This document shows positions 3,801-3,887 of a stretch of 4,497 bases of DNA, piece by piece. The stretch is from a virus (taxonomy: Duplodnaviria; Heunggongvirae; Uroviricota; Caudoviricetes): IMG/VR virus record IMGVR_UViG_2648501230_000017; one strand, given 5' to 3'. Under the pieces are notes generated by a model. It was given only the letters and a program-made list of their open reading frames with translations, was not told the origin of the DNA and made no database searches. A program made the translations under genes and the position numbers. Position 1 is the first letter of the stretch. The number at the start of each line of letters is the position of its first letter.

Positions 3801-3887
3801 ATGTCAGTGCTGGCTGACGGTGTGCTGGTGGCGGGTGTGGTGGTTGTTGCTTTCCCGTTGCTGAAAAAGAAAACGCCAGACTGTTAG
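3801..3887 (+). CDS. candidate micro-ORF: 28-aa hydrophobic peptide (MSVLADGVLVAGVVVVAFPLLKKKTPDC), possible small membrane protein
   Basis: ATG 3801 to TAG 3885-3887. Single hydrophobic stretch followed by KKK, with E. coli-preferred codons (CTG, GTG, GCG). No clear SD. An in-frame GTG at 3756 would extend it to about 43 aa. Below the ORF-track threshold, found by manual translation. Confidence 0.2.
   Translation: MSVLADGVLVAGVVVVAFPLLKKKTPDC

Follow-up and report, generated by a model that had tools for sequence, protein, structure and literature searches.

The micro-ORF at positions 3801-3887 of the window (the whole 4,497-nt stretch of DNA analysed here) is best explained, with a probability of about 0.78, as the 3' 87 nt of tciB, a gene that has lost its front half together with its partner gene tciA, and that most likely persists as a non-functional relic beside the small RNA gene STnc100. 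Judged by its sequence, the ORF is a fragment of tciB and at best a truncated allele of it. It has already been annotated, and is a remnant of a known family rather than a new toxin-like micro-gene. The course of events that we propose is as follows: recombination or deletion would have removed tciA, where an AT-rich module carrying orf117 is now found; the old start codon would have been destroyed and the first hydrophobic segment would have lost 20 nt; from 3788 onward the DNA would be a pristine copy of an intact allele, and no independent gene would be needed to account for it. The remnant would be carried passively in the Q-dependent late transcript next to STnc100, and would be translated poorly if at all, through weak initiation at GTG3756 or ATG3801. 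As the presumed role of TciB as a membrane partner needs both tciA and the first segment, the remnant probably has no function of its own.

The micro-ORF and its family

An open frame of 28 codons (ORF28) leads from an ATG at 3801 to a TAG at 3885-3887 and encodes the peptide MSVLADGVLVAGVVVVAFPLLKKKTPDC; it is nested within a 43-codon ORF that starts with a GTG at 3756 and shares its end (3756-3887, plus strand). The ORF listing and its translation confirmed both the frame and the peptide described in an earlier, sequence-only reading, and the membrane segment with a lysine-rich tail proposed there was likewise borne out: the most hydrophobic 19 residues, VLADGVLVAGVVVVAFPLL, have a mean Kyte-Doolittle value of 2.47, are followed by KKK and belong to the membrane protein TciB. 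The preferred codons noted for this frame, as against the rare codons of the ORF upstream, are reflected in a codon-usage index of 0.72 (GC 0.54, GC3 0.62) versus 0.53 (GC 0.41, GC3 0.37) for orf117, a complete, AT-rich ORF of 117 codons at 3367-3720 (plus strand, PHROG 2873). The index refers to the Kazusa E. coli K-12 table; the GC content of the whole stretch 3257-4400 is 42%. A convincing Shine-Dalgarno sequence is absent from ATG3801, as had also been pointed out, and from GTG3756: the anti-SD duplex energies are only -3.3 and -3.0 kcal/mol, respectively, with an anti-SD match of at most 3 bp at both.

With 68 ORFs of 20 or more amino acids in the window, the length of ORF28 alone is within chance. 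It is the match to Pfam DUF3927 (PF13064; E 7.3e-16, 58.3 bits against a cut-off of 25, profile positions 26-53 of 53) that marks it as genuine coding sequence by descent. The 43-aa form read from the GTG matches profile positions 7-53 of 53 with 95.6 bits, and a match to PHROG 1470, 'TciB-like', was obtained with E 5.8e-10. Since TciB of phage P1 matches PF13064 over its full length (92 bits), DUF3927 is the TciB family; we take P1 TciB to be the founding member of DUF3927/PHROG 1470, and the 'Tci' names of TciA-TciB were presumably given by homology only. P1 TciB and the lambdoid 'TciB-like' proteins have the same core MSVLADGVLVAG..P and the same basic tail as the window peptide, which is identical to the C-terminal 28 residues of intact 57-aa members (P0014, ending in ...KKKTPDC). 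Within the family, ATG3801 is the codon of an internal residue, Met27, whose place is taken by Leu in P1 TciB and, by eye, seemingly by Phe in an Erwinia phage protein; on this family comparison it is not an ancestral start.

ORF28 contains the second half only of the full-length architecture, which comprises two hydrophobic segments and a loop in 50-57 aa. Compared with intact TciB, the window ORF is without the first hydrophobic segment, the DF[ST] part of the loop and the ancestral GTG, and where family members have tciA immediately upstream, overlapping or within 12 nt, there is only a relic of that gene.

The sequence-only reading had likened the peptide to type I toxins and holin modulators. 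It does have the general shape of such peptides, being short, with one hydrophobic helix and a basic tail, and its size, single helix and basic end are those of Hok, TisB, Ldr, Ibs and Zor. Unlike these toxins, to which it has no sequence relationship, ORF28 has no known antisense RNA and no recognisable promoter or leader of its own. Its family is another, well-defined one whose genes are coupled to a TerB gene, and within that family its ATG is an internal codon. A search for an antisense partner, as had been suggested, gave no Rfam antitoxin RNA (Sok, Sib, IstR and similar) at E ≤1 in the window and, in the promoter scan, no promoter-like site on the minus strand in 3700-4000. The ORF also lies outside the lysis cassette and has no Pfam holin match; in related loci over 1 kb, including iraM or the esterase gene, separates it from the holin downstream. 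A small membrane peptide of the toxin or holin-modulating type, with regulation of its own, is consequently an extremely improbable description of ORF28, and the toxin and holin-modulator readings found no support.

The longer form is already present in public annotation. The 43-aa protein WP_000562553.1, called 'DUF3927 family protein' by PGAP, is annotated in DNA identical to window positions 3756-3887 (in L004, a locus without the downstream insertion described below, the CDS is 4567-4698, i.e. the window coordinate +811), with no difference in either DNA or ORF. This annotation is silent on the out-of-frame first 10-15 residues and on the missing partner gene. With a match required to span at least 80% of it, the stretch 3690-3960 was found in 1184 of the 5426 complete E. 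coli genomes (about 22%). Neither NCBIfam nor PADLOC contains a model for TciB, orf117 or the remnant, and a literature text search with DUF3927 and the peptide strings returned nothing useful. The remnant itself carries little biological weight and is more of an annotation caveat: the entries of 43 or 28 aa that are widespread in RefSeq as 'DUF3927 family protein' are tciB fragments with an out-of-frame N terminus and without their neighbour tciA, and small-protein catalogues and toxin screens should treat such a hydrophobic micro-ORF as a remnant.

Setting in the prophage and the intact tciA-tciB cassette

The DNA of the window belongs to a lambdoid E. coli prophage and makes up its late-regulatory region. 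The C-terminal part of a DUF968 gene (71-412) and a RusA gene (413-778) are followed by a Q-type antiterminator gene (775-1329) with a short leader and terminator after it, by an ORF of 65 aa (orf65), by an N6/N4 DNA methylase gene (1908-2957) and, 3' of the latter, by a tRNA(CAT), which PGAP assigns to tRNA-Ile, and a tRNA-Arg(TCT). The leader and terminator at 1363-1436 are the pR'-tR' unit expected in a lambdoid late operon; a weak isrK-like Rfam match on the plus strand (21.6 bits against a cut-off of 50) spans the same positions right after Q. Between the two tRNAs lies a weak tRNA-like stretch (3090-3163, plus strand; 22 bits with the Rfam tRNA model, cut-off 29), which was called a tRNA neither by ARAGORN nor, in identical DNA, by PGAP, and is probably the decayed middle member of a phage tRNA trio. 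TciB loci are situated in the lambdoid late region between Q and the tRNAs on one side and STnc100 and the lysis genes on the other; the window ORF, which follows the tRNA genes and precedes STnc100, occupies the same position.

In lambdoid prophages the cassette tciA-tciB-STnc100, of which tciA belongs to the TerB family, is a 'moron' that comes after the Q antiterminator/tRNA genes and ahead of the lysis genes. tciA was found directly upstream of tciB in 88 of 95 fetched loci, with a 4-nt overlap or a gap of at most 12 nt and TciA identities of 41-100%; this sample is biased toward intact copies, because the loci were ranked by their match to full-length proteins. The pair is also present in P1, in an Actinobacillus phage and in an Erwinia jumbo phage, and was absent from the Vibrio and Pseudomonas phages checked. 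In all six intact lambdoid alleles aligned, the GTG start of tciB overlaps the stop codon of tciA (ctGTGAcgg), and several of the six have no nearby ATG at all; start and stop overlap in lambdoid, P1 and Actinobacillus phages. Such a GTGA overlap is a signature of translational coupling, by which tciB would be read by ribosomes finishing tciA. Homologues of orf117 with 61% identity stand upstream of tciA-tciB in three diverged loci (L009, L078 and L085), making orf117 a habitual neighbour of the cassette.

Intact TciB proteins are 50-57 aa long and consist of a basic N-terminal stretch, a first hydrophobic segment (..LLFLVV..), a conserved loop (DF[ST]S[KR].MSVLADG), a second hydrophobic segment and a basic tail; they are predicted to reside in the inner membrane. 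A comparison of 24 distinct intact alleles gave a pN/pS of 0.42 overall and of 0.29 in the core M27-P45, which indicates that the family is a genuine, constrained protein. AF2 models intact TciB as one continuous helix over residues 3-52 (pLDDT 87), a result compatible with either a hairpin or a long helix. TciA has its main match in PF05099 and weaker ones in DUF533 and DjlA. Membrane-tethered TerB-domain proteins are known from the ter operons, where TerB occurs with TerC, and from DjlA and YebE (DUF533), in which a transmembrane segment is fused to a TerB-like domain. By analogy with TerB-TerC, DjlA and YebE, TciB may serve TciA, a soluble TerB-domain protein, as a membrane partner or anchor; in all of these a soluble TerB fold is paired with a membrane segment, although in TciA-TciB, unlike the fusions, the membrane part is a separate protein of 50-57 aa and the interaction is a putative one. 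The window, in contrast to these systems, is without any TerB partner. No PADLOC defence model matched the cassette, and tciA, tciB and tciC scored as non-essential in a CRISPRi screen of P1 (PMC10695390). The comparison with the remnant sharpens the picture of the intact cassette, and it is tciA-tciB-STnc100 that is the more worthwhile target.

Decay, a mosaic joint and variation in the remnant

What is left of tciA in the window are about 19-20 nt of its 3' end (3728-3746), which together with the translation-initiation region of tciB form a relic at 3728-3755 on the plus strand; by a hand count from the alignment, 24 of its 28 positions match intact alleles. The ancestral stop/start ctGTGAcgg has become ctGTTAcgg at 3743-3746. 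A net 20 nt are missing up to 3787 relative to intact alleles (the gaps can be placed as 11+4+5 or 15+5), which puts the ancestral start in a different frame from the 3' half of tciB. Positions 3756-3787, on the same strand, represent the decayed 5' half of the gene with its first hydrophobic segment (TM1): codons 4-10 of the 43-codon ORF (YCFCEWH) are old TM1 DNA in the wrong frame, and read one base over the same DNA gives, by eye, LLTVFV, resembling the ancestral LLLFLV. Taken together, the indels of this 5' part leave GTG3756 in phase with the 3' half, and this GTG lies 5 nt after the GGT-AAAAA initiation region used by intact alleles.

A mosaic joint is located at 3788, in the loop codons SSRI and 13 nt 5' of ATG3801. 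Window positions 3788-4017 are 100% identical over 230 nt, up to the end of the contig, to a locus with intact tciA and a 57-aa tciB (L219, encoding P0014), and the DNA 5' of 3788 could not be aligned by BLAST to intact tciB alleles. Homology begins at 3784-3791 in 46 loci, and at 3788 in the match to phage JLK-2012. Inheritance from intact tciB through this joint explains why the micro-ORF has host-like codons and a clean helix. In intact loci the place occupied here by orf117 is that of tciA; one locus (L218) has the orf65-methylase-tRNA backbone in common with the window (85% identity) but carries tciA-tciB in place of orf117 and the truncated tciB (tciB'). Two loci considered as intermediates were rejected, L198 being an IS insertion and L111 a secondary deletion.

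The sequence-only reading had also offered ORF28 as the C-terminal piece of a disrupted gene that began in the frame at 3367-3720. The first half of this idea stood, the disrupted gene being tciB; the second half fell, since orf117 is complete and in another frame. The two ORFs are adjacent, which is all that recommends a common origin, whereas residues 10-117 of orf117 cover positions 1-108 of 108 of the phrog_2873 profile (E 1e-68) up to a natural end, the DNA from 3788 onward is identical to tciB of intact loci, and in L111, the sole deletion variant joining both, a stop codon is hit. There is virtually no chance that ORF28 is a frameshifted C terminus of orf117.

Homologous loci in which this frame is disrupted while its surroundings are conserved had been named beforehand as the pattern that would speak against a micro-gene, and such loci were found. 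In a second, independent lineage without tciA (L003, L005 and L014), a 1-nt deletion in the same hydrophobic segment yields a 38-aa product in 422 genomes, and the flanks are about 85% identical to the window. Disabling changes also occur among the window-type copies themselves: L19P together with an upstream nonsense codon, E8*, in three contigs of the Shigella type, G22S, G7C, one loss of the start codon (GTG to GTT) and the frameshifted products P0021 and P0023. All family members agree at the residues changed by L19P, G22S and G7C. Among some 110 sampled window-type viral contigs, about 95% retain an undisrupted 43-codon ORF, but these copies are about 99% identical, and intactness is for that reason uninformative. 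By a hand tally, ORF28 is the most polymorphic part of its neighbourhood, with 8 sites in 70 nt against 2 in 65 nt of the spacer before STnc100. Its polymorphic sites among window-type copies are divided into 4 non-synonymous and 5 synonymous ones, small numbers to which recombination may have contributed; the ratio is nearer to that of the intact alleles (pN/pS 0.42) than to the approximately 3:1 expected under neutrality. In orf117, 13 non-synonymous and 5 synonymous sites were counted among 65 near-identical viral contigs; V14 and L66 set the window apart from 64 of them.

One possible interpretation of the open frame is that it encodes a truncated but functional protein, TciB', a single-pass membrane peptide, initiated either at GTG3756 (43 aa) or at ATG3801 (28 aa), which is maintained by selection. 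The ORF is called by PGAP in 1184 genomes and is intact in most sampled copies, its synonymous and non-synonymous sites stand at 5:4, the frame has been restored after two indels with a GTG placed behind the old initiation region, and E. coli genomes often hold several tciAB-type copies, with up to 8 matching places per genome. A peptide of this kind could conceivably interfere with TciA-TciB of co-resident or superinfecting phages. Set against this are the near-identity of the sampled copies, the nonsense, start-loss, L-to-P, G-to-C and frameshift alleles in circulation, the frameshifted sister lineage, the N-terminal residues that derive from out-of-frame TM1 DNA, the weak SD pairing and the loss of translational coupling; the pristine state of the 3' half, moreover, is accounted for by the joint at 3788. 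We therefore consider maintenance by selection unlikely. A related scenario, to which we assign a distinctly small probability, is that the truncated allele is translated and kept as a stand-alone peptide, one possible role being that of a decoy that titrates or disturbs TciA-TciB of co-resident prophages or of incoming P1-like phages; if true, this could help to explain the presence of the arrangement in about 22% of complete E. coli genomes. Passive persistence of a tciB relic remains the reading that we prefer.

The GT-rich repeats GGTGTGCTGGTGGCGGGTGTGGTGGTTGTT occupy positions 3819-3850. Public protein variants display recurrent in-frame duplications or deletions of GVLVA or V at this site, as well as frameshifts (P0005, P0044, P0097, P0098, P0102, P0021 and P0095). 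This pattern suggests that the repeats may be slippage-prone DNA.

STnc100 and the DNA around it

The match to STnc100 (RF02076) at 3953-4142 on the plus strand, with a terminator at 4112-4133, scores 132 bits against a cut-off of 47 and extends over model positions 1-206 of 206. The RNA gene starts about 66 nt after the tciB stop codon, both in the window and in E. coli-type loci, and tciB is ordinarily followed by it. An alternative is that the ORF owes its retention to a role as promoter, upstream element or 5' leader of STnc100 rather than as coding sequence. The 3' half of the ORF and STnc100 do move as one block, and a promoter-like sequence on the plus strand, TTGTGA-18-GATAAT at 3773-3802, is directed toward STnc100. 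However, many copies of STnc100 (Stx phages, Nil3 and second copies) are free of tciB DNA, with homology beginning only at about 3912-3964, and ORF28 is more polymorphic than the spacer that separates it from STnc100. STnc100 has also been located 75 nt after stx2B (PMC12370729). The promoter scan performed at chance level, with 4 sites found against 2.9 expected, and a role of 3740-3960 as structured RNA was rejected, as the fold of this region has a z value of -0.10. Taken together, these results make retention of the ORF as an element of STnc100 very unlikely.

The promoter-like sequence at 3773-3802 is a match at the level of the consensus only; its -10 element covers ATG3801 and its -35 element falls in the decayed 5' part of tciB. 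If it were active, transcripts would begin within the micro-ORF and read into STnc100. A promoter for STnc100 was not obvious by consensus scanning.

Homology blocks in about 220 fetched loci start and stop at discrete points, at approximately 3924, 3964, 4090/4098 and 4132-4135. As several of these edges lie inside STnc100, the sRNA gene seems to be a recombination joint between cargo modules, with tciAB or orf117 upstream and iraM or an esterase gene downstream. In the window the downstream module, in the stretch 4168-4497, is an iraM-like anti-adapter gene on the minus strand, which runs up to 4400 and is cut there by the end of an IS3-family element; it loses its first ~30 codons to the insertion, and in the uninterrupted locus L004 its product is 111 aa long. 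The end of the IS3-family element starts at 4401. Of 5426 E. coli genomes, 4345 contain the element, the median copy number being 3.
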